Assembly: GCA_008632985.1 (NCBI GenBank) | Contig: QPGO01000062.1 | Location: 248,001 to 312,000, forward strand | Source of the DNA: Psammoneis japonica | Taxonomy: Eukaryota | DNA: 64,000 nucleotides | Direction: 5' to 3' | Shown: piece by piece, positions 3,100-57,435 of the stretch | Position numbering within the stretch: the first letter of the stretch is position 1 | Layout: every line of letters starts with the position of its first letter | The notes under the pieces: generated by a model | The model's input: the letters and a program-made list of their open reading frames with translations, nothing else | Told to the model about the DNA's origin: nothing | Databases searched by the model: none | Made by a program: the position numbers and the translations under genes

Positions 3100-5399
3100 G
3101 TGTCGTCACAACATGGGAAACACCGCGGAACGAATTTGTGTGGCAAAATATCTTGACAACAAAAACATTTCAGCTCATTGTGACCCACGCGAAATTTACA
3201 TAGGGACAATAGTCATTCCCGGTCATTTGTCACAGAAATCAATTTTGCCTTACGCACGACGAATGCCGTAAAGCTGGTACAAAGTCATTTTAGGAGCATT
3301 TCCTTTTTTTTCGCTCAATCGCAACGCACGCCTTGCTTCTGATTGACAGACAGGCGTTCCTCAGTTGCCGATGGCAGGTTACGTGGCGGTCACATGATGG
3401 TTGAATGCTTTGAAACAAATGCTGAAATGTGCACATTGGCAGCCATTCCACAATCATCACATTTCAAGTTGGTGACTGTCAAGCTGTTTTTGGTGTTGGG
3501 TGCTGGCACATGCTGCCTCCAAGCGTCGCTCTTGTTTCTTGTTGCAGGAGCAGCAGAGGCTTTTTTTCACACATCAGCCGTGCAAATGCACAAAACAAGT
3601 GTCTTTTGATGTCACCTTGTTGGTTGTGTCTTGGCAATGCAAAATGACCTCCACATGCCTCCTGTGAAGGAGCAAGGGGAGAGAACAAATCACGAAGTCG
3701 GGCGCAGAGAGATCCCCGAGAAGCCAGCGTGCAAGAAGGTGCGCACCTCTTTGTGAGTGCTTGCCAGCCACCAACCAGCAGCCACATGCACTGTGGTTAA
3801 ACTGGGCTTGCTGTCTGGACCCAGCCAAAGGGGGCAGTGATGCATGCTGTTGGGACAACATCTGGAACACCGAACAATCTGGTGTCGCACCTCCCATCAA
3901 GATTTTTTGAATTGCAGCCAGGCAATTTTTTTGTTCAATCCAAGACTGCGCCAATTTGTCCAACCCACACTTGTGAAATGTTCCATGACAAGCTTTTTCA
4001 TTCCTTGAGTCAACATTTTCTCTGCCACCTGCACAAGACTGCAATGTAGTTTGTTGTGTTCATGTCAATTCCTGAATGAAGTGTGCTGCCCACTTTCCCT
4101 GGATCAAAATTTCTTCAGTCATTCATGCATCAAGTTGGACTCTTCTTTGCTCCAAATTTTCTTCTCCCTGTCGCTGCCCTTCTTTGTTCCAATGCAATGC
4201 CCCTTGCATTGCTCTTCTTCATTTGTTTTTACATCACTGTGGCCCGGCTCTTCGCCAAGCGATTGCTGCACATTGTGATTGATGTTTGCTTTCCTTGCAT
4301 TGGGGCCTTTCTGTTTTTCCAACATGCTTCATTGGGGATGCAGTCTGATGGTCTCATTTGTCCTTGGTGCAAAAATTCTGGGTTCAGTTCCACATGCAGT
4401 CTTAGTTGGCATGTTGCCACCAACTGTCTCTGTTCTGTGGGGTCTGACCAAGTCTTTTGGTTGTCCGCACTGCCCTCTCCACTGCACTGCTTGTGCTGTT
4501 CTCCCTTTGCCAGGAACAACACAGTTGCACTCAAGAACCAAAATGTCCTCCCTGTCTGGCCAGACATTGGTTTCTTGGCTTCCTTGGGATGCCACCTCTG
4601 TTGCCTCTCTCTCAAGTCCAATGTCGACATGCCCAAACATCCTTGTCATTGCAAGTTCCCTTTTCCAACATCCCCCCTGCATCTCCAGAAGCAAGCTCCC
4701 TGCAAAGAGAAAGAGGGAGCTTCTCTTTGATGCTCTGCTGCTGTTTCAAATGCCGCCAATTCGTTTTCCCCTCCAGACGATGACTCATTTGGTGACAATG
4801 GCCATGATGCAATTTTTGGTTTTGCTGATGATGCCCCCCTTTTTGAAGTCCATTTGGATCCAGATCCCCTTTTTGAAGTCCATTTGGATCCAGATCCACC
4901 TCCTCCTGTTGGCTTTTCCTCCAATGGAAATGGTCTGCACCCTCCCACTGTCAGATGCTCTGGTCGATTGCACACTGCTGCCAATCTGGCCACTGCCAAT
5001 GCAGCTGCTGCCAATGATGCCCGCCAACAACTCGTCTTGTTTGCTGATGATGGTGTGTCTGCTGCCCTCAGAGAGGAAAGTCCTGTGGATGTTCTCAAGC
5101 TCATTGCAGTTGATTCTGTCAATGGTGCTTTGGGCCCTCCTTTGATGTCACATCCTGCAGAAGACACAGCTCCTCCTCCTGTCAGCATTGACTTGGCTGA
5201 TGTTTCCTTGTTTGACCCCAACAATCCATTTGGGCTGGCACGTGAGCTTGCCCCTGATGAAGACTTTGGCACCCCTCTGGTCCATTCGCCCAGCACTTTT
5301 GCACCCATGATTGAGTGCTCATCTCTGTTGTTGGTCAGGTGTTGCTGTCAACTTTGTCAACAAAGTCATGAGAATGGTCCATGAAGAGCATGCCGCAAA

Positions 5400-6700
5400 A
5401 AGATTTGATTTGACAAAGCCTCCCATTGCAGCTGCTGTGGCAATGAAGCAACTTGGGCAGCTGTCCCCTGTTCCCCAATGTCCCTCCCCCCCACACTGCT
5501 GTTGTGATGCTTGAGTGCAAAACAATCCAATGCAACAATGGAAGGATGGTCCCAAATTGCACCATTCTCCACCTTTCCCAGTGTGCAGTTTCACAGCGAG
5601 ACTCTGCAGGATCTGTTCACAGAGCCAGTCATCTACAATCTTTCAAAGTTGCAGGTGAATCCAAATGACATTTGATCACCTTGTTGGTTGCCTCCTTTTT
5701 GACAGCAATTTAGATCCTGATGCTGCAGCTGAGGGTGGTGACACTCGGTTTCCAGATTGTCCCATTCGCTGGTGACTGTTGACTCAAAGTCAAGACATGG
5801 CAGATGGAGAGTGGTTGCAACATTGTTCCGATGCCAAGGAGACTGCATCTGATTTCCATGTTCACTTTGTCAATCATTCCAACAAGACTGGAGTTAATGC
5901 AATCAATCCACACATGATGGAGCCTCTCAATTGCTCACTTGCAATGACTCAAGAAGGCGCTTGTCATGATTGCCATTGCTGGCATCCTCTTGGCTTTGTT
6001 CCAAATGTGGACAAGAAAGACAAGAGGAACAAAGGGGGCCATCTTGTCATTGCAAATCGTTGCTGCATTCTAAAGGCCGTTCTTTGTGGACTGCTCTGTT
6101 GCCAGGCCAATCCGCCCATTGGTCACACAATCATTGGAAAGGAGCACCAGTGTGTTGGGGCCACAATGCATTGCAACTCCCTGTTGGGTGTCATCCTTGG
6201 TCAAGAACAAATTTGTGGCAGAGCAATGAGTCAAAGCAAGACTAACAGACCATCTCACAACTGCCATGTGCCCTTCTCCCTTTCCGACAATTCTCTCCAT
6301 GCTTGCAAGTTCTTCAACCAAGTTTTCATTGAGTTGCTCACTCCATCTGCATTGGGTCAAGATCCCAAGGATGACAACAGCCACTGGCATCAGCATGTGA
6401 AACATGCATGAAGAAAGCACTGCATGATGACCACACAAAAAAGGCAGAGAACAAGCTTTCTGCTTCCCTCTGTCGGTGCATGAAAATGTGCACCGAAATG
6501 CCAAGGAAAGTCTTTGGACAGCTCACAGTTGACAACACTTGCTTTCCAATCAACACGGGTGACAACCCCTGTGGTGCATTTGGTGCGACGTGTGACAGTC
6601 TCCCGTGCAATGTGTGTGATGGGTGCAGGTGTCGTTCCTCAAATGATGGAGGTGACAGTTGGAGAGATGCCTGACAAACAGAAAGAGGAATGTGACCGGA
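5400..6700 (+). pseudogene. Decayed Plavaka-like (CMC/EnSpm-related) transposase
   Basis: HFVNHSNKTG...MEPLNCSLA...CWHPLGFVPN and DNTCFPINTGDNPCGAFGAT resemble Plavaka motifs (xDKT...EP...WRPLGYxP; NAF..xG.NP.GI..AT). Recognised from memory; several frameshifts. Confidence 0.55.
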
Positions 6701-8859
6701 TGGCCTTGGAATTGTTCTGCACACCAGCTTGGTGTTGTCCAGGTCAGAGGCGTGACTGTCCTTGATTGGTGTGAGTTGATGGCAGTCTCTCTGCCCTTGG
6801 TTGATTGATCTGTGATGAGAAGATGGGCAAGCCACTTGCACTCACCATTGTTGACCGCACTCCTGCAGGCAGAAAACTGCTTGAGAAGAGGTGTGATCTC
6901 CTTCCTTTGATGGCAAAAAGAAAAAAGCTGCCAACGGCTTTTTAAGGGGAAAGAAGCAACAAAATGAACAAATGACTGAATCACCTGACAGTGAACTCAA
7001 AGAAGAGGAGAAAGATGCTGTTGATGTGTCAACTCAACAACATGAAAGTGACCAAACCACTGCATCTGATGTGCCAACCCCAGCTGAGACGTGGTCTGAT
7101 GTCCTGTGCAACCCATCTGATGTCCAGCAGCATCATGCAATTGTGTGGTGCAACAATTGCATCGGGGTGCATGCAGTGGTGGAAGTGCTTTGATGAGCAT
7201 GGCAAATGCATTGAGTCTTTTGCTCCTCAAGCTGACAGAGATGTTGCCAACAAGCTGGATCTGCTGTGTGTGGTGATCCAAATGAGCAGCACAAAATTGT
7301 TTCATTGTTTGCTTCAAATCATGTTGTCCCGCATGTGAATGGTTGGAGGCCGGAAGCATGCCCAGGGATGAGACAAAAGTGTTCAATGTCATTTGTCATC
7401 ATGGGTCATGATGTGGATGATGATGTTGGAGCAATCTGAGTTGGAGGCATGGCACAGGGTGTGACACCTGCAGAACCCACACGGCAGTTGTTGAGAGTTT
7501 GGCAGTGGATTTTGGCAATTGTCCAACATGAGGACTTGTGTTGACAGCCAAGTGGTCTTGACCATTCCATGCCCTTGGATTGATCTGGGCCCGCCGTCTC
7601 TGCCCAGGGAGCTGCTGTGACAAAGTTGGGGGAACCGCTCATTGTTGGGGTGTTGTCCTGTGGGATCTCTTTGACTGGTTTGTCCTCCACTGGCATCTGT
7701 TGGGCTGGACTGTCACTGCACTTGGGAAACATCTTCTTGAGTTGGAATCAACCGAGGCAAGAATCTGGGGCTGGCTCACTTTTGTTGCAACACTTGCATC
7801 AAAACAGCTTGCAGAAAAAGCCCGTGGTTTTTTGGTTGGCTGTTTCTTCATGCAAACTGTGGACAGGCTGCCACATTTGGTCTTCCGAATTGGGAACCCA
7901 GCTGGTCTTTGATTGCCAAAGAGTTGATTTGCAGCAATTCATGGGGCAACAATGGCAAGGATGACAAAAGAGGCCAACAACAAAAATGCCCCTTGTTGAG
8001 CAGCTTGTGTGATTTTCTTCCTCAAAGGTGGCTTCAAAAGAAGCAATGGACGGTCCTTCCTTGGAAGGCTCCAGGCCCACAGGGCAAACACAAGTTTTGT
8101 TGTTGCCTGCTGTTGCATCATGTGCAGGAGCTTCCTTTGTCAAGGCAATGAAACAACTTGTCAAACAAGTTGAAGGACCCTGCCTGTGTCACAGGACAGT
8201 TCCGACACACACCCCCATGACACTCAATCTGGCAGATCCCATTCTTTCTGGTTCTTCTTCTTTTTGGGCATGGTTTTGACCCAGGGTTTCATTGAAGAGA
8301 GATCCTGTTCCTGGCTCAGTGGCTGTGGCATTGGCAATTGGCAGTTGTTGTCTCCAATGGAAATGGCCACCATTCGTTCCAACAGTGACTTGCACATTGG
8401 TCACGGATCGAAAGCACCCATTGCAAAGCAAGAAAGACAAAGAGTTGCATGTGTTGAGAAAGACATCTTCTGGCAACTGAATCTCTTTCTCTGTGACAGA
8501 GCTCATGTTGAGCTGTGCATCTGAAATGACCTCTGATTGAAAGGAGGAAACATTGGTGCCACATTCCACATTGTGCCCTTCCATCACGTGTTCCAAGATG
8601 AGTCAACATTTTCTGCTCTTGTGAAAGGCACTCCTGTGCATTTTGTCCATCATGACACTCTTCCAGATCCAGAAGCACCAAGAACCTTGTAGATCATTTG
8701 GAAACACACAACAATCATTGGATCTTAGCTTCATTTCCTCATGACAATGGCATCCCAAGCTCATGTTGTGATGCTCATTTCTTAAATTGCAAGAACATGC
8801 AAGGTCACCAACCGCCAGCCTGGCAAAGCAAGCATCACCATGGAAGACAACAAGGTTGC

Positions 8860-11110
8860 CGAATTCAATGCCAAATTGTTTGGCATGTGCACCAGCATCA
8901 TGACAATGACCACACACCACGTTTGGGCAAGGAACTGGGTCTCTTTCAAGCCCTTCTTCATGAGCATGGTCCCATGAAATCCACTGAGTTGGTGTCTCAA
9001 CTGAGGAAGCCAAGTCCATGACAGGTGCAGGAGCGGTGCTTGCAAATGATGGGAGCTGCCTTCTCAAATGCAGCGAAGCAGTCAACACATTTTGCCTGCC
9101 ATCAGAACATGCCTTGCTCCTGCACATGGATGAGGGCATTGCCACCATGATTCGAGTGATCAACGAAAATGCTGCCTGTCAGTGTCCACTCTTAAAGCTG
9201 GCCTGTGAAAAGAATGGAGGAATCATGTGAGGCAACATGAAAGGAACAACTCAAGAAACAGCCAGGCTCTTTTTCAAGCCCGTGTGCAAAATCTTGTTGC
9301 CCCAAAGGATTGATTTGTCCCCCAAGCTCAAGGCTGCATTGAGCAGCAAGGAGAAGGAGGGCAGCAGCAGTGGTGCCAAGGTTGCTGACTTGGGCTGTGG
9401 ATGCACAAGCCAAAATGGAGATTGAAGGGGCCAAGCTGACCAATGCCGAAGCACGCTTGTGCAATTCCCATCAATGGGTCAAGCTGGGAGAAGAGGCAAC
9501 ACATGATGTTGTGACAGTCTTTGGCACCTTTTGCAACATGCACAATCCTCAGGGCATGGCTGTGACAGAGATCCCTGCATCCATGTGAGAATGACACTCT
9601 CCACTAAAACCCCCCTCACACTGGGAGAATCAAAAGCATGGTGAAAACAGGGTTGAAGATCTTCCAGTGCAGAAGAGAAGTGGTGAGAGGAGTCATGACT
9701 GCCAGACAGGCAGACATCAAAAAAGAAACAACAAATCCGTTTCTGCACCCAACACCACAAAATCCAAATCATCCACTCGTAAAACCAGCCCAGTGAGCCA
9801 TCAACATGAAGAGACCGGGAGATTGTTCAGAGCATGAGCAGGACAGCAAGCCAGGAGGTCTGCTGGGATGATGCCAGAGCACACTGTTGGGAGGCCTGCA
9901 AGACTGAGCCCAATCTAAGAAGAAATTGGGTGGGCGACCGGAACAGCGCCAATTTGGTGGAAGCAAGTTGCCAGGGAGGAGCAGCCAAGGCAACAACTGA
10001 CAACAACTCCAAGCAGTGCAATCCCCCACAATGGGGGGCTTGCAGCATTGGCAGGGTTGAGGTGAGCACAGTCCAAGACTGTGGATCCATTTGCCTCCTT
10101 TGAGGTGTGCAGAGAAGCCATCTGCACACGCGGTGCACAGACAGGAGCTTGCAATGTGAAATGTGTTGATGATCATCAAGGGAGTGCATTTTGATTGCAG
10201 CAATTGCCTTGTTCACAATGCATGCAATGTGTCTTGGCGGGTTGGTGGAGCAGACACAGCTGGGGGTCTGCATGGGGTGCCGGTTGCAGCAGCAGTTGGC
10301 AAAGTGCCATCTTGAGCTAATGCCAGGGACAGAGCAGCCTGCATTGGTGACAGTTTTGCTTGCCAGAACAATGCCATTGTCAAACGGGTGCCATTTGTGG
10401 GAGGCATCTTGAAGTTTCATTGCACTCAAAGAAATCAAACTGCACACAGGGCAGTTGATCTTGGATCTTTGATGGCACACCTTGTGCAGGATTGCTGTGC
10501 AAGCAGAGTGCATGCCATGCCACATGCAAAACATTGGCTGATGACACCAACAAAAGTGGCTGGATGAACAATGATGGATGTGTTGTCACGTTGACAGAGT
10601 GAAAGTGGGTGCATTGCAAACGCTCACTGCCAGTGTCAACAATGATGTGCTGAAAAGGTGTTTTGTTGTTTTGTGATGTGATGTGGCTGCTGGCAAGTGA
10701 AAGAGAGGCTCATGACCTGACAGAGATCCCTGCATCTGTTGTGCAGGAATGGCCCACTCCACCAACAGGCTGGTGTGGCTGAGGAGATTTTCAAGGCTCT
10801 CAAACCTGGAGGCATGGCGCTCATGATGATTGAACCATTTTTGAGCTTCAGCAATGCCGCCAAGGATTGCCTTGCAAACTTTGGGGTGCTGCATGTCAGA
10901 GCTGGAGGTTGTGCTTTTGTGCTCCATGTGGCATGACTGGAGACATGAGAAAGGATGGGCTGAGCACGAAGGTGGGGACAGAGCATTGCACTGAGATTTT
11001 CAAAGAAAAAGTCAGATTTTTGTCCATGGGTGCTTTTGGTGCCAATGCTGAAGGCAGCAAGGCTCTAAACTCCAATGATTTTCATCTCTTGCTGGCAACC
11101 AGGCAGAAGC
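8860..11110 (+). pseudogene. Decayed class I SAM-dependent methyltransferase (Rv2258c-like: wHTH plus MTase), split by a ~1.1 kb insertion
   Basis: RLGKELGLFQAL..HGPMKSTEL; FCLPSEHALLL; TARLFFKPVCK; motif I KVADLGCG (~9377-9402); C-terminal EIFKALKPGG..MIEP (~10785-10840). Stops and frameshifts present. 19-bp direct repeat at 9563-9581 and 10718-10736. Confidence 0.6.
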
Positions 11111-13080
11111 AGAGCTGCTCAAAGTGATCCTTTTTATGCTGTGTGCTCAAGGAGTGGGTCAAAAGCCTTCGCACATGTCACAATCATCTTGTCCATCAAA
11201 CGAACCGCATGATCACTCCTCCTGTCATCATCGGCACAGCAAGAGCGACTGTTGCCATCATTGCCATCACCACCATGAGCCCGCCCGAATCTCTCATCAT
11301 TGTCATTGTGCCAAAGATGATTGCCTTTGTCGTCATTGCCGTCGTTGTTGTTGCCACTGTTCAGCGGCGGCTGTCCCATGCTCTTGACCACATTGGCATT
11401 GATGAGATAAAACAAAAAGCACGAAATGGCACAGCCGCCACCTTCGGCCACCTTGCACTGGTTGTTTTTACAAAAGTGACTCCCACAGGCCAAAAATGTC
11501 AGCATGATGAACACAGCTGCCCAAATGCACATCCACAACAACCAACGCTCAAATGTCAGTTTGCTGAATTTGCAACAACAGGCCAAAAACAAGACCAAAA
11601 AGGAAACAAAGGCACAGTCACCATGAGTTCTGCGGCAGCAGGATTGTTCAGTGCACAAACAAACAAGCATGGGGAACTCAACCAATGCCAGTCATCAAGC
11701 AGAGACTCCAGCTCTGTTGTGACTCCTCCCATGGAGGGATGTCATGTGCCATGCAATGGATTGAGCTCCAGCAGTCAGTGAGAAATTGAACAGAGATGTG
11801 CACACGTGTGGTTCTTGGAAACGGAGGCACTGAGGACAGTGGTGAGACATGCCCAACTTGGCAGACTCAAACTGCTGTGACAAGGTGATTGACATGGCAA
11901 AGAAGTTGGAGAATGACAAATGACATTGCAAGGCACTAGAAACTGACAGCAGAAAATGCCAAACCTGCAAAGCACACGGTGCAGGAAAAAGGGGAATCGG
12001 CTGAGAGGAGCCAAGGATGGAGTGCAAGGATGGGATCATGAAGTGCAATGAACTGCACAAGTGGTTGACAAAAGACCAAGATGACAACAAAGGATTTGGT
12101 GCCTGACTCAAGAGGAATGGAGACAAGAGAAGGCAAACTTGTTGTCTGAGGAGGCAGAGAAGAAAAGCGCAAGAGAGAGGAGAAGAGGAAGGAGAGAGAC
12201 GGCGGGTGGGCCGCACCAATGGGAGAGGACCTGCCCTTGCAGCCAGTGGCTGCCAGCAACAGCATGGAGGCCATTGCAGCCATGGCAACAAATCAAACTG
12301 GTGTGCAAACATGAAGTGCAGCAAACAACAAAATCCAAAACAAGGCAAAAACAATGAGGAAAACTGCAAGACAGTTGTCAGCCAACACAACAAAGTGCCA
12401 ATGGCAGTTCTTGCAACATTTGCTTTTGGCAAAGCAACGAAAAGAGAAACAATGCAGAAAGAAGTGACAGGCAAAGATGGTGGATTGTGAGTGGCAAGAG
12501 ATGTGATGAAGGTGTGAGGAACAGCAAATGACAAAAAGGGTTGAGATTGAAGCTGTGGGTGAGAATGTTCGTGCTTCCAAGTGGGGCACAATTTAGAGAC
12601 AAGAAACTCACAAACTTGCTTGGTTCTCAACTAACATTCAAAGGAAGAAATGGCTCATGAGTTCACAATGATCTGGGATTGGAGTCAAGAAACACCCAGA
12701 TTGTGACAGGTGGTCAAACCCAGAGTGTTGGGCACCCCAGATGAAGTTTGGGGGGAAGGACAAAGCTGCTCTCTCTCAAGGCTGGGGGTGGTGCCCACCC
12801 CGCTGCTTTGTTGATGTTTGCTGTTTGTGCTTTTGCCACCTGCCAAAGCTTGGGCTGGACAGTGATGACCCACCAGGTTGCCCAGGCTTCAGAAAAAAAA
12901 AAATGGATCCTGTCAGGTTCATTCATCGTCGAAAAGCAAGCAAGACGGGAAGTTCTGACCTTCTGTCCTGCGTCCGGTGGTGTATGTGGAGCTCCAAGAT
13001 CCGCGAGAAAGATCGCATTGCGCATTATTGCGACGACCGTCCATTTCTTGTGTTGCATCCAACAAAGAGAGTTTATGACC

Positions 13081-43237: not shown

Positions 43238-43289
43238 TCATTATCAGCGAATCTAAGATTTTTATATTGCAGTTGGTAGTCTAAGGTTG

Positions 43290-44739: not shown

Positions 44740-45049
44740 ATTCACACTGCTGAAATAATGAAACTATAGACATTGGGTTGACACAACAAAAACCGTGTTT
44801 CCCATTACAGCAGCTCTAGCACTCCTGTTTTGAAGCATTTCTTGTTTGTCATGAGAACACAAAAAAGCCTGGCGTCGAGGAAACACCAACTTTTCTTCGC
44901 GAAGGGCTGTGAACCAACGTAGCATGCTCGTCGAAAACCCATTCACAGCTCTTTCTTTACGTGCAAAAGGAAGAGTGAGAGTGTTTCGAGGTCACAATAA
45001 GCAGTTCGTAGCTAGCTTTCTCTGTGCTACTTGATGGAAGGTCAGTCAG

Positions 45050-48000
45050 ATCTTCCCTCTCAGATGTCTGCCTGGCCAATCGGCTGAAGTCAATTTGAAT
45101 TTCATTGACCTCCAAGTTGCAAAATGCAAATCCGCAAGCATCACACTCATTTCAGTGATGGTGAGTGGAGACACCATGGCTCAATTTGGCCACCATTTTG
45201 TCTCCCACACCACCTCAAGACCAACAATTGGAGCATGTCTCTTGGTGTTGTGGTCATCAACAGCATTCCTTCCCGTGAATTGATTCCCTTGAATTGATTG
45301 TGTGGCCTTGGGGCAATCAAAGTTCTTCACACATGTGCCACCCCCCCCCCCCCCTGCTCACCTCCTTGTGTTTCCCCATTGTCTCATTCTGACACTTGTT
45401 TGTTCATCCTGCAGGTCACCATGATGAGACTCACCACATGGTCTGGCTCAGGTGATGTGAAAAGGCACATCTTTCAATGCACTGGTCCAAGCGCCAAAGT
45501 CACGGACTTCTTTGTCATTTGAGTGACTCCCCTCATGTCGTCACCCTTGACTGGCTCATGCCAGAATCACCACTTTTTCATCAATGCCACAGCAAAAATC
45601 TCTTTCTTCCACAGCTCAGTGGCATCTTTGAGAATGCAAAGCTGCCATCAAACACCATGCACAAGCTTTGTCATGCCATGTCGTTTCATTGCTTCAGCCA
45701 CAGAAGGAGGCCAACAGTTGTGCCCTTGTCGCCCAGATCCAAAGTTGACATTCATGCAGATGATCCTTTCCCTCCACAAGCTCAGCAACATGCACAAGAA
45801 TCCCAGAGATCACATTGCACATGATGCAGTGCTTGTTTGCAAAAGGCAGCGGCTCTTGCAAGGTGCAAGCACAAATCCCAAGCATGTGGTGTGTTTGTTT
45901 GTCCACACTGACATGGACACATCCAGATGGGACCACCACCCTGGCTTGAAACTCCCTGTGTGCAGCACTCCTCTTGCTCCACATGCCAACTGAAACACAC
46001 ACTTCCCAAAATCTCTGTTTGGGTGTTGGAGCAGAATGTCTTTGGCACATCACAAAGCCCTGAGAATGTTTTGTGCTCAAATCAAGCCCTCCTGTGCTCA
46101 TCACGTGCACTTTCCCAAAACTGCAGAGGTGTGCCGCCAAATTTGCTCACATCCTCTTTGACCAAAGCTCTTGATGCCATGTGCCAGCAAGAGGCAAGCA
46201 ACCTTGGGATAGAGCGATGATGCATCTGAACATTTTGGGTGAGGCGTGTGGCCAATTGCAACACCTTGGCATGGCATTTTTTGGTTTGGCAATCTCCTTT
46301 TGTGGTGCTTGCAAGTTGTGGCCAGTGACAAATTTGCTTTCTGGGCAAACCACAGAGAGCAATGGTTGCATTGCCCTTGCACAGCTTCCACTGCCTGATC
46401 AATGCAAAGCTCCGGCAAAGTGGAAAAAAGACTTGGTGCTTCATGCACTCTGGGATGTTGCGGCGCACCACAGAGCCCATGGCACAACACATGCTGCAGC
46501 AGTGCTGCAAATGCATGCCATGGAGTTGCAGGGGGGGGGCTCCCCAGCAGCTTGGCAAATCAGACATTTCAAAAGAGACCAAGCAAGCAATTGTGCATGT
46601 GGCACACACACTGTGATTTGCCATCAACGCACACACACAAAAAGACACATGATGGCAGCACATGCGCAGGCATGTGGTGGTGACATGAAAATGGGATTTG
46701 AGAAACTTTGGTGCAGCCAGTTCAGTGTGGGTCTGATCTGAAATGCAAGCCAACAACATGACTTTTGACACCCTGCCACAAGTCCATCTGACAGTTTGTG
46801 CAGCAGATTTAAAAAAAGGATGAGACAAGTTGCCTTTGATGTCTCCAACTCCCAGGAGTTAGAAGAAATGTCATGGGTGCTTGCATTCTCCCAATGACCA
46901 ACAACCAATTGTGTGGACAAAGAGGATTTGGGTGTCAACAACTGTGCTCACATGATCTGTGCAACAAAGGCAGTTAGATGGAGCAACATTGATCTCCCAG
47001 CAATGTCATGTCATCATCCACTGCAAAAAAAATGACAGTGCTTGCATGGCAAGAAGGCTTGCCCAATGTGTTGTGTCTTGCCCAAAAAAGAGGATGTTTG
47101 TGCTTGGACATTTGGAAAAAACCTTGGATTTTGGTCTGTGCATCTCTGCAAATGTGAAAAACTGTTCCTCTGGGGGAACATCTGGGCAGCAGCAGCACCA
47201 GCTGATGGAAAAGCTTTCCTCATTTCTGGTGGTGCAAAGGGAGCAGCAGGCACGCCAAAGTTTTTTTCTGGGGTGATGTGGGCAGCACAGAGTGCAAGCT
47301 GCATGTGTGCAAAGAATTCATGGTGCAGCAAGGGCAGCTTTGCTGAAGCCTCCCTGTCTTCAACATCTCTGGAACAAACACAGCAGACTTTGCAGGCTGT
47401 TGAGGTGCAGCGTTGCACAGAACTTCCAGGGGAAAAGGAGGCTTTTGCCATGACAGTGCACGCGGCAGGGCACAATGTGGGAAGAATCTGAAAGGGCAAA
47501 ATCAGTCAAATGGAGGCTGCTGTCATGTTTTGGACATGTGGGATGAGTTTTCAAGAGTCAGCAAGATGATGGCTGGGTGGAAGTTGCTGCTGTTCTCTCT
47601 GTCTTTCTTGAAACAAATTAAGTTGGCTTTTTGTTGATTCATGTTGGAGCTCTTGAGCACATCAATGGATGAAAACAAAGGCAGGACACCACAGCCATTG
47701 TGCCATTGGCACAAACACACAAATGCAGAAATTTTGGAGGGTCAATTTTTGTCAGTGTGCAATGTGCAGCCACTGACAAGAGCCAACGCATCACGGCGAC
47801 GTGTCACAGCCTTTAAATGTCACAAAGGGCGTGACAAAACAACCTTTTGTCTGCATGCATGCTGCGTTGAGGGGTTCGAAACCCTGAGTGGGAGTTGTCT
47901 GCAGCAACGTTGATCACTTTCGAACGCGCAAAACTCTGTGCAGTTCTGCACGTTCCTTCGCACACACCCACACTGTTCCGCCAAAACCGTGCAGTGTCAG

Positions 48001-51000
48001 CACATGTTTGTAAAGAGCCGCATGGACGCGTGACACATGGGGAGGAGTGCAACATGCAGCCACCAACAAGAGCCAATGCATCACGGCGATGTGTTGCAGC
48101 CTTTAAATGTCACAAAGGGCGTGACAAAATGGCCTTTTGTCTGCATGCACACTGCAAGTGGAGTCACCATGATGCTCTTGCTCCACTTCTTCACACTCAC
48201 AAAAATCTTCATCATTTGATGACTTCCTCCATTTCAAGTCCTGTGCTTTGGCAGAGAGCGATGTCTGCTGAAGTTTCAAAAATTGTGCTGGCTGAGCCTT
48301 TTGAATGCTCATCAATCAACCACCTGCTTGGCACTTTGAGTGTCTTTTTGCAGCTTGCACACTCTGTGGCCAAGACAAGTCTGCCTCTTGCTGCCATGCC
48401 AAAGAGTGTGAAAGAAAGAAAAAAAGATGTCGCACCTCACCATCTGGTTTTGCTGGTTTTTCATCTTTCTTTCTTGCATTTGGGTGAAGCACATTTGCTC
48501 ATGTTGCACCTCAGATTGCTCGTCAACAATGTGGCCCCAGCAGCAGGTGGTGGGTTGTCAAGAAGGGCTGACTTTCCTCCAAATGCTTTGCAGCATCTTT
48601 GTCGTCATGACAATTGCCACTTCTTGGTCATGATGCCTGCCCCCATCTCCTGCCACAAAACACTTGGGGCTTGGAAGCATTCTCTGCATTGTCACTTGAT
48701 GAGCACCCATTGCCCAGATTTGGAAGAGTTTTCACATTTGCTTGAGACCTTGTTTTCCCATCCTGTGGTGACGGTGTGTCATGGGACATTTTTGGTGCCA
48801 TCTGTTGCCCCCTCTGCTCCTTTGTTTCTGTCAAGAAAATGGCTTTTGAACCCTGTGCCACCACTTGCCTGGGCAAGGCCTCTTTTGTGGCACAACTCTT
48901 CCACACAAGCAAAAATCAACCTCATGACCATCTGGCACATGTCCAGGCTCTTGTTGTTGATTTGCACACTTTGTGACCACCCACAATTTTCATTGTTTTT
49001 TCAATCATGTGTCAGTCAGTCATGGAAGTGATTGCACAAGTTGACATTCTGTCTGGGTGGATGTGCACCATGTTGAGTGCACTGTTTCACAACTCAGACA
49101 TTGTGCAGTCATGTCAGGCCCACACCGCCAAACATGCTCATGTGCCACCACATTCTTTGCAATGTGCTGGTTTCTGCACATCTCAATGGATGTGGCACAC
49201 TCAGCCACAATCTGGCAACACTGGTTTGGACAACAGCTGTTGGCATGCTCGCAGCCCTGCTGACACAGAGTGCTTGTTGCAAGAGCTGGCTTCAATGAAT
49301 TGTGTCATTGCCAGCTAGTCCTGCACCTTTTTAAAGTCATGGCACACAGTTCCTGACCACAAATGGCCAGCGAAAGTGTCCGTCCATGCTGCTTTGTGAT
49401 TTGCACATTGCCAACAAAGCTGCCCCCATCATTGCAACAAAAAATTCTGGTGCTTGGAGCCCTGCAGAGAGAACAGCCTGCATGCTCATGCACACATGCC
49501 AAAAGCTTTGGATCTGTCACACTTCATCCGTTGGGGCGTCAGCATCACTGACTGCAGTGTTGGTTAAACTTTGCTGTCCTTGAAGTTGCCCCACTTGTCA
49601 CAGGCAGCACTTTCTGAAGTTTGATCTCAATCTCAGAAGCATGGGTTGCTTTGAAATGCCCAGTTGCTCGAAACAATGCAAACTGGCTCAAGTCATGCTC
49701 CCATCAATCCAGCCAGTGTGCTGGTGTGTCCACAGGGTTTGCAGCCCCCCTCTCCCCCTGTGTGTGTGTGTGTGTGTGTGTGTGGCTCCTGAGGAGGTGC
49801 CCCAGCAAGTCATTTTTGCCCCCCCCCCCCTGACAACTCCTGGGATTGTCCCACTTTTTCAAAAACAAAATGAACATGGCCATCAATGGAATTTTTTGGC
49901 AAGCTTCAAAAGACATTGAGTCAATTTGGTCACTGCAAATGACCACAGCAAGAGCAAGGAGGGGGCTGCTCCCACTTTTGTTTTGATGACATCGTGCAAA
50001 AAACACCACAAGAAACAAAAAGCTTGTGCCTCTTCATGTCCTCTTTGGCAAGTGTGTCACAATCCAAGCAATGAGTCCATGTGTGACACACACTCCACAC
50101 CAGACCTTTGAGGCATTTCTTGTCACAGTGTTTGGCACAATGAGAAAGCTCTGAAGTTGAGCGAAAATTCTGAAGCAGCAGCTGAAGAAGGCACATTGTT
50201 GTGAGCAAAGATGCTTGTTGCACTCAGAGCACCTGTGCCCCATGGCTCCAATGGCATTTTTCAAGACTTGCCAGGTGTTGCTTGCATTTGGTGCTGAGCA
50301 CTGATGCTGCTGCAACCCAGTCCCACAGGTGCAGCTTGGCTGTTGAAAACTGATTTTGCTGGTTCCTCCCACAGCAGCAGAAACTCTGGGCACAAAAAAA
50401 AGCAAGGGTGTGTGTGGAGCCCTGGTGAGATTGCACAGCATGAACACAAGTGCTGGGCTTTGGTGCTTGCCACTCAAATTGTTGCCATTTGGAAATGTTG
50501 TGCAGTCAATTGGAAACATGCACTCAAGGGGGGCATCAATGTGCAAAATGACTGTGCCCAGTTCTTGCCTTTGCAGACATCACATGCATTGTCACATTGT
50601 CTTGGTCTCTTGTTGCTTCCAGGTGTTGTGCTTGGCATGCTGTGGTCATGCAAACTTTCCTGGCTCCAGCATCAACACATGGCTGAAATGCAAAAGCACA
50701 AGCCTCAGCTGTTGACTCACAGCATGTTTGTTTTGTGTTGCCTTGATTGACTCACAAGGGCTCAGCTCACTGTGCTGCATTTTCTGCACATTTGTTGCAT
50801 GTTGCTCACTTGCAAGCTCCTCAAGGGTGTTGCTTCTTTGTGCTTGGTTTTGCTTGACCTAAAATCACATGTGATGCACTGCTGAACAGAAGCTGTGGTT
50901 GTCAGCACATGGTTTGTGCACTCGTTCTTTTTTGTTTGTTGTCTTCTTTTGTGCACAATTTGTTCAGACAGTTGTTGAGCTGCCAAATTGCAAATGAACA

Positions 51001-53261
51001 AACCACTGCTGTCTCAAAAAATTCGAGGGGCATGCTGGCATTTGTGTGCTGTGCTCATGTTTTTTGAACATGTGGCACTTTTTTTCTTCGTTGTTTGAGC
51101 TTCATTGTGCATCTTGTGGGGTTGCAAATGCTGTCATGATGGCAACTGCATTGTGCAGCTGCAGAGATCAGCTCATGTTGCGGGCATTTTGCGGTCATGA
51201 GTTCACGGCTTGGAGCTGTCAGACCTTTTTTTTGTTCCTCTGGTTGGGTGCAGTGCAGTTGTGCACAATGACCACACAACAGCACCACATCACAAGCCAT
51301 GCTGGAAGAGCCACAGACTCTGCAGATGTGTTGTTTCTGCTGCAATTTTCTCTGTCTCTTTCTGCAAGACCAACATTTTGTTTCTTGCATCATCTGTCAT
51401 TGCCAGTTGCCTGCAGCAAAACAGCAGCACAATTTTCAGTCAGCCACAAATTGCAACAGATGGAAGCAAATAATCTGTTGCAGCTCTTGTTGTGTTTCTG
51501 TGCAGCTCAATGTTTTCCAACCCTTTGTTGGCTTTTGTTGCTTCACTTCTCTTCAGTTGTTTGCACATTGAAGAGCACAAGCAAATGAGAAGGCCCAGTG
51601 CTCTTCTCTTGCTTGGTGCTTCCACATTGTGCTTTGTGCCTGCATCAACAAGTTGAGGGCTTTGTGCCCTTCCAGCAGCTGGTGCTTTTGTCATGGCTGC
51701 CTTCTGCAAAATGATTGTCTGCAGCAAAAAGCACAAAGGCCTTGCACCCTTCTTGCAACAAATGGCACTCAGATCCTTCATCAGCAGGTGGGAAAAGAGC
51801 GTGCCTTTTCTGACCTCAACTCAGATGGCATGGTGACATGTTCCCAGCTTTGGACACAGCTCCAGCTGTGAACAAACAGCTTGGAGACACCACTCCCTTG
51901 TGATTTGTTTTGCTTTCTTGATGTGCTGGTGTGTGACACACACTTTTGTCTCATTGTGTGCAGATTGAAGACAGTGGGTTTGGGTGTCGCAGAGAATGTC
52001 TGTGGCAAGAGGATGCTCTCATTGCTGTGCTTGAGTGCAACACAACCCACTTGACTTGCAGTTGTGGCAGGTGCAACAATGCTGCATGCCTGGTGCAACC
52101 AGCTGAGAGCTTTTCTTGTGGTTGAGTGTGGCCTCAACTGCCACAGCTTGGGCCCCATTTGCAGCACCACACATCAATGCACTCCAGCCCTGGGTGGGAC
52201 TCCTTGTGACATGGGGGCTCACAGAATTTTGTGTGCAAGTTCTGCAGATCATGTGCTGGATGACAAGCACATTTGCCCTTGACACCCAAACAAACAACCA
52301 AGTTTGTTGTGCAATTGCTGCACCTCTTCACACTCTGGGTTTTTGAAAATCTGCCTGCACGGCACATTGCACAAAAAATCAAAGTGGTTGAATGGATTGC
52401 ACAAAAAATGTTTGCACTGCAACACAATGCAAAATGCCACCAAAAAGTCTCACAAGAAAAGTTTGTTTGCATGATGCGCAGTGCATCAGAAAAAATGTCA
52501 GTGCATCACAGCCCAGCAATGGCAGGAGGCCCAACCATTTTTGTTGTGAGGGGTTGTTGCTCTGCAACCCAAAACTCAGGGCTCACTCTGCCTTCTCCCA
52601 ATTCTGGGCTGTTTTCTCCACAGCTTTTTCAGAGTGTCTTGCAAGCTGGAAGAGCCAGCACCACTGTCTGTGTTTGACGTGTTGCAGCCCCAGGTGGGAG
52701 CTTGCAGTGCTGATGTGTGACACAATTTTTTTTGTCATCCGTTGCATGTTTCGCACACACATTTCTACGTGTGATCTTGCAAAAAATTGTTCCAGACTTG
52801 CTGTTTTGCGAAACCTCAGATGTTTTGTTCAACAAAATCATGGGAACACAAATGTGCCAGGTGCATTCTTTGACATGTGAAGAATGTGCCTGGCTGAGCA
52901 AAAGACACTGCACTTCAATCATGGACGAGTTTGTGCGTTTGCAAAATTTCCTCATTTTCTGTTGGTGATCATTGACACACACCAATTGCTCAACAATTTT
53001 GCTTTGGAGCTTGCACGTAGAATTCCATGGGCCCAATGTCACATGGATTTCCACCTGCATCTGGAGCGCATCGTTTTCCCATCACATGTGCCACTTGCAA
53101 GTTGCTGCTGCCAAAATGTCATCATTGACACAAGCACTTCTTTGTCATCTCTTTGTTGAAAGTTGCCACACATTGTGCACTTGATGCGATCAGATGGTTG
53201 TTGGCCGCTTGAGCAATTGGAGATGTGCACAACTGTTTTGCTGCAGCAGTCTGCCCCACCC
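45050..53261. mobile_element. TpA-depleted block 4, left part: unclassified decayed repeats
   Basis: About 15 TA in about 8 kb by eye. No recognisable family. Contains a ~100-bp direct repeat at 47757-47859 and 48047-48149. Confidence 0.65.
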
Positions 53262-53501
53262 TGACAGGATTTGAACAAGATTTTAGTTTGTCACACACAA
53301 TTGCTTGTGCTCTCAGTTCCGTGCGAGACGCGCAATGCAGTTTGGCTTTTGAGCCACATGGCTCACAAGAACAACAACAGCGCCAGCACCAACATCAACA
53401 ACACCAGTCTTTTGGCTCCTGTGATGGTGTCTGCATGGAGACTCATCTGCCATTTAGAAAGCAACAAGGAGTCATTGTTTTCTTCCACCCAGTCATCTTC
53501 A
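53262..53501 (+). repeat. 5' LTR (alignable part)
   Basis: Aligns with 56596-56842. True 3' end uncertain. Confidence 0.85.
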
Positions 53502-54810
53502 ATTTCTGTCAGATTGACAATCTCACTCATTTTCATCCATTGAGCATTCATCATCATCGAAAATCTTTGACAACACACACCATTGGCGGTGGAAGTGCAT
53601 GTCCACCTTCTTTGCTGCCACCTCAACAATTCTGACTGGCCACCCGAATCCCACGAGTTGTGTGGTCACTTCGTTGGCATTGCCGAACACGTTGGTCATC
53701 ACATGACATTCAAGATTCTTTCTGACGATGCTCAGAAGATTCTCTGCCGCTCAAATGTGCATTCCGCCTGTGATCCGTCCACTCCCAACCTGTGTCTTGA
53801 TCCTCCTGATGAGGAATCTGCTGAACCCGTCATCAAATCCCAACATGACTCCAAGGATTCACCAGATTCTTCAGATGGAGGGGTGATCAGGATGCCCAAA
53901 ATGCCGGTCTTTGACCCCAAGGACATCATTGGATGCACCTTCCTGCCTCATGAAGCCACAAGAGGATGGACAATGCCACAGAGCTCGTGTTGTCAAAGCC
54001 GTTGAGGACCATGGTGACTGGAAAATTGGAGACAACCCCAAACTGGTCAAGTTCATTTGCTCTGTCAACAATGGTGGGTGCGAGGAAGTCCCAGCCTGCA
54101 ATGACATCATGCACCACATCAAGCAAGAAGACGAGGACACTGCCCTCTGGAAACTCCGATGCATGGCATCGCAAAAAGGACCATTGCAACCTCATGATCC
54201 ATCTTGGAAAGGCTCAAGCTACAATGTCATGCTTGAATGGGAGAATGGGGAGATCATCACGTCTGAACCCCTTGCCATCATTGCCAAGGACGATCCTGTC
54301 ACCTGCGCCATTTGCACACGCGAGCACAGTTTGCTTGAGACCAATGGCTGGAAACGCTTGTTCCGGACTGCAGCTCTGTGCCAGAAGAAGCTGTTCCACA
54401 TGGCCAATCAAGCCAAGTTGCGCTCCTTTTGCACTGTGCCACAGTGCAAGTGCGGGCATGAAGTGCCCCGGGACTGCAAGCACGCCTTGGTCCTTGATGA
54501 GCGCAATGGCAACCGCAAGTGGGGAGATGCAACAGAGCACGAGATGACTCAGCTTGATGAGTGTGAGGTCTTCCATGACTGTGGACATTGCAAGGATTCC
54601 AGCGCTCCACAAGGACACAAGAAGATTCGGGTGCATCTCATCTGCGACGTTGAACATGACAGATGGCACAAAGCAAGGCTTGTTGTCAACACGGACACCT
54701 CACAGATGCCCTGTCAACAGTGTCCATTCCAGAGTGGTGTCTCTCCACGGCCTGCGAATGATGATCTTCCCAGCCAAACTCAAAGAACTGGAGACTTGGG
54801 CTGCCAACAT

Positions 54811-55203
54811 GACGGGTTCCAGTCCTAGGTGGGACTCCGTGTGACATTGGGCCCGTAGAATTCTACGTGCGAGCTCCGTAGTACGAGAATTTAATTAATG
54901 TATACATTTATCTTCAACATCAAATAAACTGCCAAGTTTGTGGTACAATTATGCCTCTTGCCACTCGACGTTTTTGCAAATGCGCCTGCCCTACGCGATT
55001 CTTAAGACATTATAGAATCGCGCTGTAACAAAAAATGTCAAAAGTTGTTGGACGGATCGCTCAATAAGTGTGCCGTAAAATGACACAAAATATCGAAAAA
55101 ATCACGTAGAAATCTACGTGCGCGACATACGACGTGGTTCAAAAAACTGTCGATGTCACAGTTCAGTAGTGCGAGGTCCCACCTGCTAGACCTGGAACGC
55201 GTC
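54811..55203. mobile_element. MITE inserted in the copia RT
   Basis: Imperfect TIRs: gacgggttccagtcctaggtgggac versus reverse complement gacgcgttccaggtctagcaggtgggac. TSD is ACAT (54807-54810 and 55204-55207), or CA if the ends are 1 bp longer. Removing it restores WAANIGGACLEA. Confidence 0.9.
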
Positions 55204-56595
55204 ACATTGGGGGTGCCTGTCTTGAAGCTGCAACCAAGGAGAAACTGCACATTGCAGCAGGCCCCAAATCAGGTGAGCTGGAAGGACACATCCTTGTCAT
55301 CCACAAGGCCTCACACGGACTTCGCAGCTCTGGCCTCAGATGGCATGAACACTTTGCCAATTGCTTGCATGCCGAGGGCTTCTTCCTGTGCAAAGCCAAA
55401 CCCAACATCTGGCTGTGTGGGAGTGATGACCACTGCAAGCATGTGGCAGTGTGTGTGGATGACCTGGCCTTTGCCGTGAAGGAACCCCAGGCTTTTGCAG
55501 ACACTCTCATGTGGAGAAGTGCAAGTTCAAGCTCAAGGGCACTGGACCATTGGAGTTCTGTCTTGGTTGCAACTTCACCTGCGATCCAGATGGCGCCCTG
55601 TGCCTTGCTCCTCATGAGTGCATTGAGTCAAGGTTGAAAACTGTGCATGCCTCTTTGGAGAGAAGCCCCACACTGATGTGCTTTCAACCCTTGACAAGGG
55701 AGACCACCCTGAGCTCAACACCTCCGAATTGCTCAAACCGGAGGGCATCCACCAACTCCAATCCTTGATTGGTTCCCTGCAATGGGCTGTGTCTCTTGGT
55801 CACATTGACATCACTGCAGCTGTCATGCCCTGTGCAGCTTCTGTGCAGCACCCCATCAAGGCCACCCAGACCGCGCCAAATGCATCCGCGGATTCCTCTC
55901 CAAGATGCGTCATGGTGCCCTCCGAGTGTGTGCCGAGGAGCCCAGCTGTTCGGACCTTCCCAAGCCCGTGTGTGACTGGGCCCAATCTGTGCATGGGGAG
56001 GCAGAAGAGCTGCTCCAGCAAGATGCACCCTGGCCACTTGGCAAATTTGTCACCATGACACACTGCGTTGATGCGAACTTGTTCCATTTCATGCTCCTCG
56101 CTGGACGCTCTGTCACCGGCATCCTTCATTTCCTCAACAAGTTCCCGGCTAATTGGTTCTCCAAGAAACAAGCAACAGTTGAGACTGCTGCACATGGACC
56201 TGAGTTTGTTGCCACAAGGATGTGCGTTGAGCAGATCATTGATCTGCACATCACTTTACGTTGCCTTGGCATCCCCATTCATGAAACATGTCACATGTTT
56301 GGGGACAACAAGTCGGTTGTGGACAGCGCTGCCACCCCGCACTCCCAAGTTGCACAAGTGACACACCACCCTCTCATTCCATCATGCACGTGAGGCAATT
56401 GCTTCCAGTTTCCTCAAGTTTCATTTCATCGAAGGTTCCCGCAACCCTGCTGACATCCTCAGCAAGCACTGGCTGGGGTTGCTCCCAGGTCTGGAACCTC
56501 CTTCGTCCTCTGATGTTTTGGAACTTTGATCCCGAGGCTTTCAACCAATCTGACCTTGAATCCATTGCTGTCAACCCCTCAAGCAAACTGGGGAG

Positions 56596-56842
56596 TGACA
56601 GGATTTGAACAAGATTTTAGCTCATCACACACAATTGTGTGTGCTCTCAGTTCCGCGCGCGATGCTCGATGCAGTTTGCTTTCGAGCCACACGGCTCACA
56701 AGAACAATGACAGCAGCATTGACATCAATGACACCAGTCTTTTGGCTCCTGTGACAGTCTCTGCATGGAGACTCATCTGCTGTTTAGACAGCAGTGAGGA
56801 GTTGTTGTTTTCTTGACCCAGTCTTCCACCCAGTCATCTTCA
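56596..56842 (+). repeat. 3' LTR (alignable part)
   Basis: Follows the PPT-like tract and aligns with 53262-53501. Confidence 0.85.
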
Positions 56843-57435
56843 AGAATTTCCATGTCACACCCCCCTTTGAGATTCTCTTTGCATCTGTGGATGCCTCAAA
56901 GCTCTGCACAGCAGTTGAGAGCCACTCTTGAAATTCTGCACACTTCTCCCCTTGTGAGGTGGGTGCACACACCCACATCTTTTTTCTGCACCAGCTCTCT
57001 CTGGCAGTGATGTCTCACAGCTGAAGTCACCACCAAGAATGAAAATGTTCTTTTTTTGGGCCTCTTCAGGATTGCCCAAATTGCTTTTTAAAGCAGCTTT
57101 TCTTGTGAAGCTTTTCCAAGGCCCTTTTTGCATGCAATCACAGTGTAGAGGAACCACTGCATGGCTCATGTGTTGGTTCTTGTCACTCACATGCAGCCTT
57201 GGCCTTGCCTTGCCTTCCTACAGTACAACCATGAAATGTCTGTCAGTTCCACGTCTTGTCCACGTCAGTGGTTCGCTCGCTCGCGCCTCAGCGCACACGA
57301 ACATAACATGCTCGTCGTGAGATTGCAGTGGGTTTCGATTTTGTGAGGTGACCATTGAATCAGCTGCATCCACCGTCTTTCTTTTGCGTTCGGCAGTGTG
57401 TGGCCGAAACAAGTTAGCTGTAGGAACGTTAAGGC

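Follow-up and report, generated by a model that had tools for sequence, protein, structure and literature searches.

Four blocks of DNA in a 64,000-nucleotide stretch of the Psammoneis japonica genome assembly (GCA_008632985.1, contig QPGO01000062.1, positions 248,001 to 312,000) are nearly devoid of TpA and CpG dinucleotides, and the few TpA sites that survive in them lie mainly in the context YTAR (Y, pyrimidine; R, purine). We refer to the whole stretch as the window and number positions from its first letter. The window is intron-poor eukaryotic DNA with a G+C content of 47–48%, and the long open reading frames (ORFs) outside the blocks encode ordinary proteins: NDK, HSP90, a mitochondrial carrier, LarC, sulfotransferases, an amino-acid transporter, and HA-domain and pentatricopeptide-repeat (PPR) proteins. 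Among named sequences, those closest to the HSP90 come exclusively from diatoms (72–77% identity); its best unnamed matches reach 79–80%, and none in the database is near-identical. Rfam and tRNA scans of the window gave no match.

When the window is viewed in 1-kb bins, TpA and CpG both nearly vanish in certain stretches, with a rho (dinucleotide statistic) for TA of 0.00–0.09 inside the blocks. A two-state hidden Markov model (HMM) on TA density delimited four blocks, which cover 24,060 bp in all and contain 52 TAs (26, 4, 18 and 4). Block 1 (9.7 kb; 3292–12982) fills the gap between two genes and contains 26 TA, 131 CG, 1,025 CA and 1,109 TG; block 2 (2.7 kb; 36175–38845) has 4 TA and 42 CG; block 3 (9.8 kb; 45029–54825), with high-copy repeats, has 18 TA and 125 CG; and block 4 (1.9 kb; 55188–57088) has 4 TA, 42 CG, 206 CA and 197 TG. 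An island of normal composition, 362 bp long (54826–55187), lies between blocks 3 and 4. The same signature marks a mini-block of about 650 bp (19200–19850) that was not called by the HMM (rho TA 0.09, CG 0.41–0.55, CA/TG 1.5–1.7). Overall, the rho values for TA, CG, CA and TG are 0.04, 0.23, 1.81 and 1.82 inside the blocks and 0.58, 0.97, 1.20 and 1.16 outside. The blocks occupy entire intergenic gaps, and their ends lie within about 200 bp of genes.

Recognizable genes are scarce inside the blocks. Block 1 gave no Pfam family at E ≤ 0.01 in six full frames and no match to Copia polyproteins, and the ORFs of block 2 gave no Pfam family at E ≤ 0.01, with a single chance-level row (DUF7752, E = 0.021). 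Pfam searches with 18 block ORFs returned one chance-level row only (EII-Sor, E = 0.0044), and those with 103 ORFs of blocks 2–4 returned a weak row for 12, of which only RVT_2 (E = 0.0041) is real. The longest block ORF (47871–49028; 386 amino acids) has no relative at E ≤ 1e-3. Because TAA and TAG have been erased, only TGA stops are left, which produces long, spurious Cys/His-rich ORFs of up to 386 amino acids; gene callers would probably predict proteins inside the blocks.

Context of the surviving TpA sites

The 52 TAs inside the blocks comprise 34 YTAR, 10 RTAR, 8 YTAY and no RTAY, against 271, 405, 436 and 513, respectively, among the 1,625 outside (Fisher's test, p = 2.6e-14 for YTAR and 5e-9 for RTAY). 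The difference persists when only outside non-coding TAs are used for comparison (p = 4.8e-11 and 3.8e-7). The YTAR excess is present in each block, including block 1 (17 YTAR, 4 RTAR, 5 YTAY, 0 RTAY) and block 3 (12 YTAR, 4 RTAR, 2 YTAY), and all three TAs of the mini-block are YTAR. These survivors include three paralogous pairs (47814/48104, 53284/56618 and 53455/56785), so that 6 of the 52 are not independent and the number of independent sites is nearer 49. The YTAR-biased survival that had been noticed in the letters alone is thus confirmed. In the original prediction, about 12 of 18 TAs in 45050–54800 were YTAR, which we reproduced exactly; for block 1 its 17 YTAR were found in 3390–13000, among 26 TAs in total and not the roughly 22 it had given. 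It had also seen no RTAY in the block interiors, and the one RTAY of 3390–13000 sits at the very edge.

Relative to outside density, survival was 0.21 for YTAR, 0.041 for RTAR, 0.030 for YTAY and 0 for RTAY. This is the depletion order that had been foreseen (RTAY > RTAR = YTAY > YTAR), in which the equality of RTAR and YTAY is expected in any case from strand symmetry. After normalization for flanking composition over all 5,848 in-block YR steps, NTAN survival is not uniform (chi-squared = 59.3, p = 8e-13). It is uneven even within YTAR, at 0.34 for TTAA, 0.25 for CTAA/TTAG and 0.04 for CTAG.

We fitted Poisson models in which ancestral NTAN counts were taken from the outside density. Uniform survival was again rejected (likelihood ratio 75.3, p = 4e-18). 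When the two A residues of each TpA were allowed to survive independently, each according to its own 3′ neighbour, survival was 0.634 before A, 0.312 before G, 0.100 before C and 0.028 before T, corresponding to relative loss rates of 7.8 for TAT, 5.0 for TAC, 2.6 for TAG and 1 for TAA. Four levels described the data better than a purine/pyrimidine distinction (p = 3e-4) and fitted the ten symmetrized tetramers (deviance 6.66, 6 degrees of freedom, p = 0.35). The data thus fit independent hits on the two strands of each TpA, at a rate that depends on the 3′ neighbour. The TAY-preferring motif of the original prediction stands in its core, which is supported by survivors, by products and by tyrosine codons (see below), and is refined to four levels, T > C > G > A, with CTAG lacking protection. 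Survivors are also distinguished further downstream: 52% have A at +2, compared with 26% outside (p = 2e-7), and A/T is enriched at +3 (p = 0.002), which places them in T-tract/A-tract junctions.

The model also predicts products. If the strand in the better context is assumed to be hit first, each flank class should tend towards one of the two products. The observed surplus of TG relative to CA agrees in sign with this expectation in six of six independent flank classes (r = 0.84, p = 0.036).

Newly created TAs, arising by TCA→TTA, were considered as a source of YTAR and rejected. TAs stand at homologous positions in paralogous in-block repeats, all of them YTAR, and are thus survivors and not new sites. 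With the 5′ T fixed, moreover, the counts are 26 TTAA, 19 TTAG, 8 TTAC and 3 TTAT, against TCAN precursors that are roughly even, which also speaks against such an origin.

Mutation products in repeats and a Copia remnant

Ancestral states can be read where a mutated sequence has a better-preserved relative. The 362-bp island between blocks 3 and 4 (54826–55187, forward strand) is a pristine insert resembling a miniature inverted-repeat transposable element (MITE), with terminal inverted repeats CTAGGTGGGAC..., an internal repeat of the form CGTAGAAWTCTACGTGCG, and 25 TA and 25 CG. It sits inside the reverse transcriptase (RT) domain of a mutated Copia remnant. Three sequencing runs (X1, X2 and X3) from one sample, possibly the source of the assembly, were available. 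Summed contig depth across the block 3 region reaches tens of thousands at 47.3–48.7 kb and 52.7–55.3 kb and is about 60 elsewhere; over the insert it is about 137,000 in X1, so the MITE-like element belongs to a high-copy family, of roughly 2,000 copies. Two X1 contigs (depth 120) join 54801 to 55204 without the insert, and X3, the smallest run, contributes a few short contigs that lie on the insert only. The presence of a pristine insert inside a saturated block suggests either an episodic process or a very recent insertion.

Two older copies of this element carry the mutations. In the forward copy (52157–52520), the 21 aligned TAs have become 10 TG, 6 CA, 1 CG and 4 other, with no TA left, and the 22 aligned CGs are now 8 TG, 9 CA, 1 CG and 4 other. 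The inverted copy (52694–53074, reverse strand) has 9 TG, 8 CA, 2 TA and 6 other in place of 25 TAs, and 4 TG, 12 CA, 6 CG and 2 other in place of 24 CGs. Together, the 46 TAs yield 19 TG, 14 CA, 1 CG, 2 TA and 10 other, and the 46 CGs yield 12 TG, 21 CA, 7 CG and 6 other. All ten informative product directions in the forward copy match the flank model. In the inverted copy, a short palindrome of the CACGTAGAAAT type carries the CTAC and GTAG survivors in its arms (52760–52800 and 53010–53030).

Sorted by neighbour, C→T changes in these copies occur at 37 of 98 CG, 12 of 100 CA, 15 of 64 CC and 11 of 69 CT sites, and A→G changes at 37 of 87 TA, 18 of 131 AA, 17 of 102 CA and 19 of 86 GA sites. 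The latter counts bear on error-prone patch synthesis at WA motifs by a DNA polymerase η-like enzyme after deamination of 5-methylcytosine, of the kind that forms the second phase of somatic hypermutation. Such synthesis would explain why A:T mutations are co-located with C→T at CpG, and the original prediction had proposed a raised AA→AG as its mark. No such rise is seen: AA is not hit more often than CA or GA, its rho inside the blocks (1.24) is not below that outside (1.14), lysine and asparagine codons of the Copia remnant are kept in 26 of 29 cases, and transversions are few. This explanation, already disfavoured, is scarcely credible.

The Copia remnant itself is the C-terminal part (about 800 amino acids) of a Ty1/copia-type pol gene, located by tblastn at 53613–56570 on the forward strand, split by the MITE-like insert and lying between two direct repeats that resemble long terminal repeats (LTRs; left, 53262–53513; right, 56596–56843; both forward). 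Its ORF at 55170–55634 has 1,267 relatives at E ≤ 1e-3 (best, 3.4e-30), and RVT_2 is present in all four long relatives checked. When 23 long relatives were used as tblastn queries, residues 1043–1856 of one of them (P0121) were placed on 53613–56570 with E = 3e-99. By contrast with the 3.4e-30 of the direct protein search, Pfam recognizes the RT at E = 0.0041 only. Gene remnants with this signature, from which all tyrosine codons and two of the three stop codons are removed, escape standard profiles.

The pol gene has been destroyed codon by codon. At 398 conserved codons, defined by agreement of 60% or more among eight or more relatives, none of 18 tyrosines is kept (11 are now Cys, 4 His, 1 Trp, 1 Leu and 1 Phe), and the catalytic YVDD reads CVDD. 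Arginine is kept at 11 of 27 positions, with 7 His, 7 Cys, 1 Trp and 1 stop at the others. Most of the remaining residues are preserved (Gly 37/40, Pro 27/30, Lys 16/18, Asn 10/11, Gln 6/6, Trp 9/9). G now occupies the second position in 12 of 18 tyrosine codons and in 3 of 102 codons for Asp, Glu, His, Lys, Asn or Gln, and no T|A junction between codons is left among 72 conserved A-initial codons. The ancestral tyrosine codons also follow the flank model, with the predicted product at 11 of 13 informative sites and a Cys:His ratio of 11:4. In the listed set of 150 RT-fragment relatives (P0121–P0270), five conserved tyrosine columns hold 529 Tyr, 56 Cys, 37 His and 11 Trp; 23 of these relatives have at least two Cys/His at such columns, and six contain less than 0.5% tyrosine overall. 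Several tyrosine-poor relatives keep arginine, which implies TA loss without CG loss in them. Copia copies with erased tyrosines are therefore common in public data, with Cys again exceeding His, and may come from this same species.

Because the blocks around this remnant are partly made of a Copia retroelement, A-to-I editing of retroelement transcripts by an ADAR-like or ADAT-like enzyme, followed by reverse transcription, has to be considered. The LTR-like repeats, identical at integration, now align with 207 identical positions, 25 transitions and 5 transversions, and among the differing dinucleotides are eight CA versus TG, four CG/TG and one CA/CG; both of their TAs (TTAG) are common to the two copies. 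The CA-versus-TG flips indicate that ancestral TA or CG sites were hit after duplication, on opposite strands. Both strands were also hit within the Copia element, as tyrosines became both Cys and His, and the signature runs continuously, with sharp block edges, through MITE-like copies, unique sequence and a gene-flank duplicate. Hits on both strands within single elements and a signature that crosses element boundaries place the process on chromosomal DNA after insertion and not on an RNA intermediate. The 3′ rule, moreover, is opposite to the UAG of ADAR (as given in PMC11334849) and the UAG/UAA of fungal editing (as given in PMC11156358). Editing of transcripts is thus very improbable.

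The gene-flank duplicate just mentioned (38763–39165, forward strand) is a copy of 33606–34010 that straddles the right edge of block 2, recovered by transition-tolerant alignment. On the block side only (38763–38950), it shows GTAC→GTGC, GTAT→GCGT and CTAG→CCAG, and its TAs past about 38950 are intact. The CTAG→CCAG change, at 38904, had been cited earlier as evidence that the preference is not absolute, and comparison with the paralogue at 33728 confirms the change. Beyond this 400-bp duplicate, a purine/pyrimidine-encoded self-comparison and transition-tolerant alignment of block 2 with the upstream gene gave shuffle-level scores and no homology. The duplicated segment comprises the 3′ end of the HA-domain gene and the region downstream of it; the ORF of that protein (32080–33669) contains six tandem units of 105/111 bp at 32530–33177. 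Another ORF outside the blocks, at 1378–3105 on the reverse strand, encodes a cysteine-rich protein of 576 amino acids with repeated C-x-x-C/PGECC-type units and no Pfam family.

CpG decay and sequencing reads

CpG is 77% lost in the blocks. Half-site survival depends on the base 5′ of C, at 0.375 for T, 0.508 for A, 0.568 for C and 0.661 for G (p = 1e-6), and a half-site model fits these data (deviance 5.4, 6 degrees of freedom), giving the order of loss TCG > ACG > CCG > GCG. The loss is slower than that of TA, as block edges and younger repeats are TA-free yet richer in CG. The CG→TG/CA change expected of 5-methylcytosine deamination is found in the blocks, the MITE-like copies and the arginine codons, and the CpG component would most simply reflect such deamination in the same domains. 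Both components favour a 5′ T beside the target base, which leaves room for a single dual A/C deaminase.

Across 9.7 kb of single-copy block sequence, the window and the X1 contigs differ at 11 positions, of which seven are CG/TG and none is at TA, and one X1 DNA contig covers 36240–39373 with five differing letters; over 5.9 kb of neighbouring genes there are no differences. As X1 may be the source sample, such differences are read only as allelic or consensus differences. CpG loss appears to be continuing. Run X2, labelled 'DNA?', has no cover over most of the blocks, an absence to which we attach no weight. It carries GT..AG joints and so looks like RNA: at a gene at about 43.85–44.75 kb, an X2 contig skips 138 bases (43947–44086) and 103 bases (44372–44476) with GT..AG ends, revealing two short introns.

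These reads also bear on the notion that no mutation took place, the pattern being either an artefact of assembly or base calling on modified DNA or the outcome of selection against TA and CG words. An artefact would gain plausibility from the fact that all runs with the window sequence come from one possibly source sample. Contigs at about 60-fold word depth nevertheless reproduce blocks 2 and 3, with the few differing letters given above, and paralogues carry different products at homologous sites. Word selection would be expected in functional sequence, unlike the codon-specific destruction of a once-coding pol gene. We give explanations of this kind almost no weight.

The joint occurrence of TA loss and CpG decay within the blocks could also point to misdirected repair of T:G mismatches, in which glycosylases or very-short-patch (VSP)-type repair on methylated DNA favour G:C at TpA replication errors. 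The strong loss of CTAG fits this idea, as VSP repair drives CTAG loss in Escherichia coli. Repair of T:G should protect CpG, yet most CpG has gone. CpG decay can, in addition, be observed elsewhere. In a metagenome scan for Copia relatives, the patterns and ranking of which favour intact copies, none of 80 environmental loci is TA-depleted like the window, and the lowest whole-locus rho for TA is 0.46. Four of them (L052, L065, L071 and L074) have a CpG rho of about 0.2 and CA/TG of 1.4–1.6 with near-normal TA contexts; their 733 TAs are 30% RTAY and 19% YTAR. These loci keep RTAY despite CpG loss, so CpG decay alone does not bring the TA signature, and Copia copies of other organisms depleted in CpG retain normal TA contexts. 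Mismatch repair is also limited by polymerase error, against a rate of about 6e-7 per site per generation, in bursts and in some lines only, in the main text of a preprint on Bigelowiella natans, in which TpA hypermutation of integrated giant-virus and virophage DNA is described (Mettrop et al. 2026, bioRxiv 10.64898/2026.01.13.699255). We consider this mechanism quite unlikely.

Proposed process and known systems

Together, these results make us highly confident that a context-dependent TpA→TpG/CpA mutation process has acted on this DNA in place. We propose that the blocks belong to the silent, transposon-bearing part of a diatom-lineage genome and have been rewritten by a localized process. 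Its main component changes A:T to G:C only where A follows T, turning TA into TG, or into CA if the other strand is hit; an A-tract after the TA gives further protection, leaving mainly TTAA, CTAA and TTAG; and a second, slower component changes C to T at CpG. The chemistry may be deamination of adenine in DNA by a TadA/ADAT2-like deaminase of the cytidine deaminase (CDA) fold, which would be recruited to silenced or methylated repeats as a genome defence resembling repeat-induced point mutation (RIP), as has been proposed for B. natans. This whole explanation, with its enzyme, is in our judgement on balance probable. A scan of 19 long ORFs outside the blocks revealed no CDA-fold deaminase.

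Several points weigh against this proposal. A→G on one strand is T→C on the other, so that the changes would look alike whether adenine is deaminated or thymine is the base attacked. For the ancestral NTAN composition of the blocks, proxies had to be used. CTAG falls below the multiplicative expectation, with 2 observed against 4.8 expected. In the inverted MITE-like copy, the alignment of which is gappy, only 4 of 10 informative product directions match the model; over both copies the match is 14 of 20 (p = 0.058), with a log likelihood ratio of −1.1 and thus a likelihood no better than a coin flip. That copy has CTAC and GTAG as its two surviving TAs and three mutated TTAA sites, contrary to the rule; the place of both survivors in the arms of a palindrome hints that a TA may be shielded by DNA structure and not by the adjacent base alone. 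No recognizable transposon or viral gene is present in blocks 1 and 2 or in most of block 3, so that the label of foreign DNA is established only at 52–57 kb. Reads from a single sample do not independently exclude a sequencing artefact. Finally, the main text on B. natans reports no CpG component (Mettrop et al. 2026).

The ambiguity between strands gives rise to a further alternative, in which the T of TpA in silenced DNA is modified or oxidized by a TET/JBP-type enzyme, to 5-hydroxymethyluracil or a further hypermodified base, and then mispairs with G to give T→C. The flank rule would in that case concern the base 5′ of T, in the order A > G > C > T. As TA→CA and TA→TG are mirror images, every count fits equally, and both the hydroxymethyluracil of dinoflagellates and base J of kinetoplastids occur preferentially where A follows the T. 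On the other side, no sign of such a modification in this lineage emerged, although no search aimed at it was made. A strict TA target with a 5′ T is a known habit of the TadA family (as described in PMC12296453), and the sole experimental precedent, B. natans, is read in the main text by its authors as adenine deamination, a reading that is itself a proposal (Mettrop et al. 2026). We regard chemistry on thymine as improbable.

Returning to adenine deamination, a bolder version, which we put forward tentatively and think rather less likely than not to hold in full, is that diatoms may have a chromatin-targeted DNA adenine deaminase, TadA/ADAT2-like and with a 5′-T-A-Y preference, that erases TpA from silenced transposons as a RIP-like defence, perhaps a dual A/C deaminase that also lies behind the TCG bias. 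If this were true, TpA hypermutation, taken with that of Bigelowiella, would be an old and widespread defence of SAR (stramenopile, alveolate and rhizarian) lineages, and the flank rule would serve as a fingerprint for finding the enzyme and screening other genomes.

The process is like ascomycete RIP in being a local hypermutation by transitions, specific for a dinucleotide, by which repeats and mobile elements are destroyed in situ and blocks of aberrant composition are left. RIP, which needs duplication, converts CpA to TpA by deamination of C or a methylation-based route, so that TpA rises and CpA/TpG fall. The window shows the opposite, with TpA at 0.04 and CpA/TpG at 1.8. Fungal RIP can thus be regarded as a functional analogue with opposite chemistry.

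With TadA and ADAT2–ADAT3, the process shares a 5′ T directly before the target A. The natural substrates of TadA and ADAT are tRNA loops, not chromosomal DNA. As described in PMC12296453, the TadA family has an absolute requirement for 5′ U/T, wild-type TadA depends on UACG, and TadA-8e, one of the engineered variants that act on DNA, on UA with relaxed requirements further downstream. The resemblance to TadA proposed in the original prediction holds for the 5′ T/U and only in part downstream: TAC is strongly hit here, but TAT at least as strongly (per-strand survival 0.10 and 0.03), and a graded tail of TAG > TAA follows; a G at +2 would be masked by the erasure of CG. TadA is therefore an analogy only. 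ADAR prefers 5′-UAG-3′ (in the text of PMC11334849), and its edits are expected to cluster on a single strand of a dsRNA; fungal mRNA editing by TAD2/TAD3–AME1 favours UAG and UAA (in that of PMC11156358). The A→G outcome and the 5′ U preference are common to these systems and to the window, in which, by contrast, TAG and TAA are least hit, hits fall on both strands, and the changes became fixed in DNA that had already been inserted. The earlier judgement that the motif is not that of ADAR is accordingly borne out by the order T > C > G > A. The rule TAT ≥ TAC > TAG > TAA, together with A-tract protection and independent strands, forms a testable fingerprint, and it argues against ADAR-like and fungal TAD-like specificities.

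The closest counterpart is B. natans. A full-text literature search found targeted TpA→TpG/CpA hypermutation of invading DNA reported once, in the B. natans preprint, and no report of the signature in diatoms. The main text of that preprint describes mutation-accumulation lines in which A→G or T→C made up 230 of the 231 mutations found in two integrated viral regions, all of these at TpA according to the authors, with the de novo rate raised about 1000-fold; G:C→A:T was not raised in hypermutable regions, 124 clusters are depleted in TpA and enriched in CpA and TpG, and ADAT2 is proposed as a candidate (10.64898/2026.01.13.699255). The window resembles this system in its A→G/T→C changes at TpA (A→G at 37 of 87 TA sites, against 14–22% elsewhere), in its local blocks depleted in TpA and enriched in CpA and TpG, and, at 52–57 kb only, in the mobile nature of the DNA hit, which in B. 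natans includes reverse-transcriptase-bearing sequences and there consists of Copia, LTR-like and MITE-like elements in the window; blocks 1 and 2 and the 45–52 kb stretch show no recognizable gene. The window differs in belonging to a different supergroup, here the diatom lineage as judged by the relatives of HSP90, with intron-poor genes; in being near-saturated, with a TA rho of 0.04 against 0.45 in a B. natans viral region; and in having lost CpG (rho 0.23), a dinucleotide that the main text of the preprint does not name. The evidence from B. natans is experimental, from mutation-accumulation lines, and that from the window is a footprint only. A flank rule is defined here, and the words 'context', 'flanking' and 'trinucleotide' are absent from the preprint's main text, although its supplementary tables may hold contexts (Mettrop et al. 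2026). With the rule, contexts can be predicted for the 231 de novo mutations recorded in B. natans, and oligonucleotide substrates can be defined for candidate deaminases. The window thus records the same kind of process as in B. natans, in another supergroup: saturated, on transposon remnants, coupled to CpG decay and with a defined flank rule.

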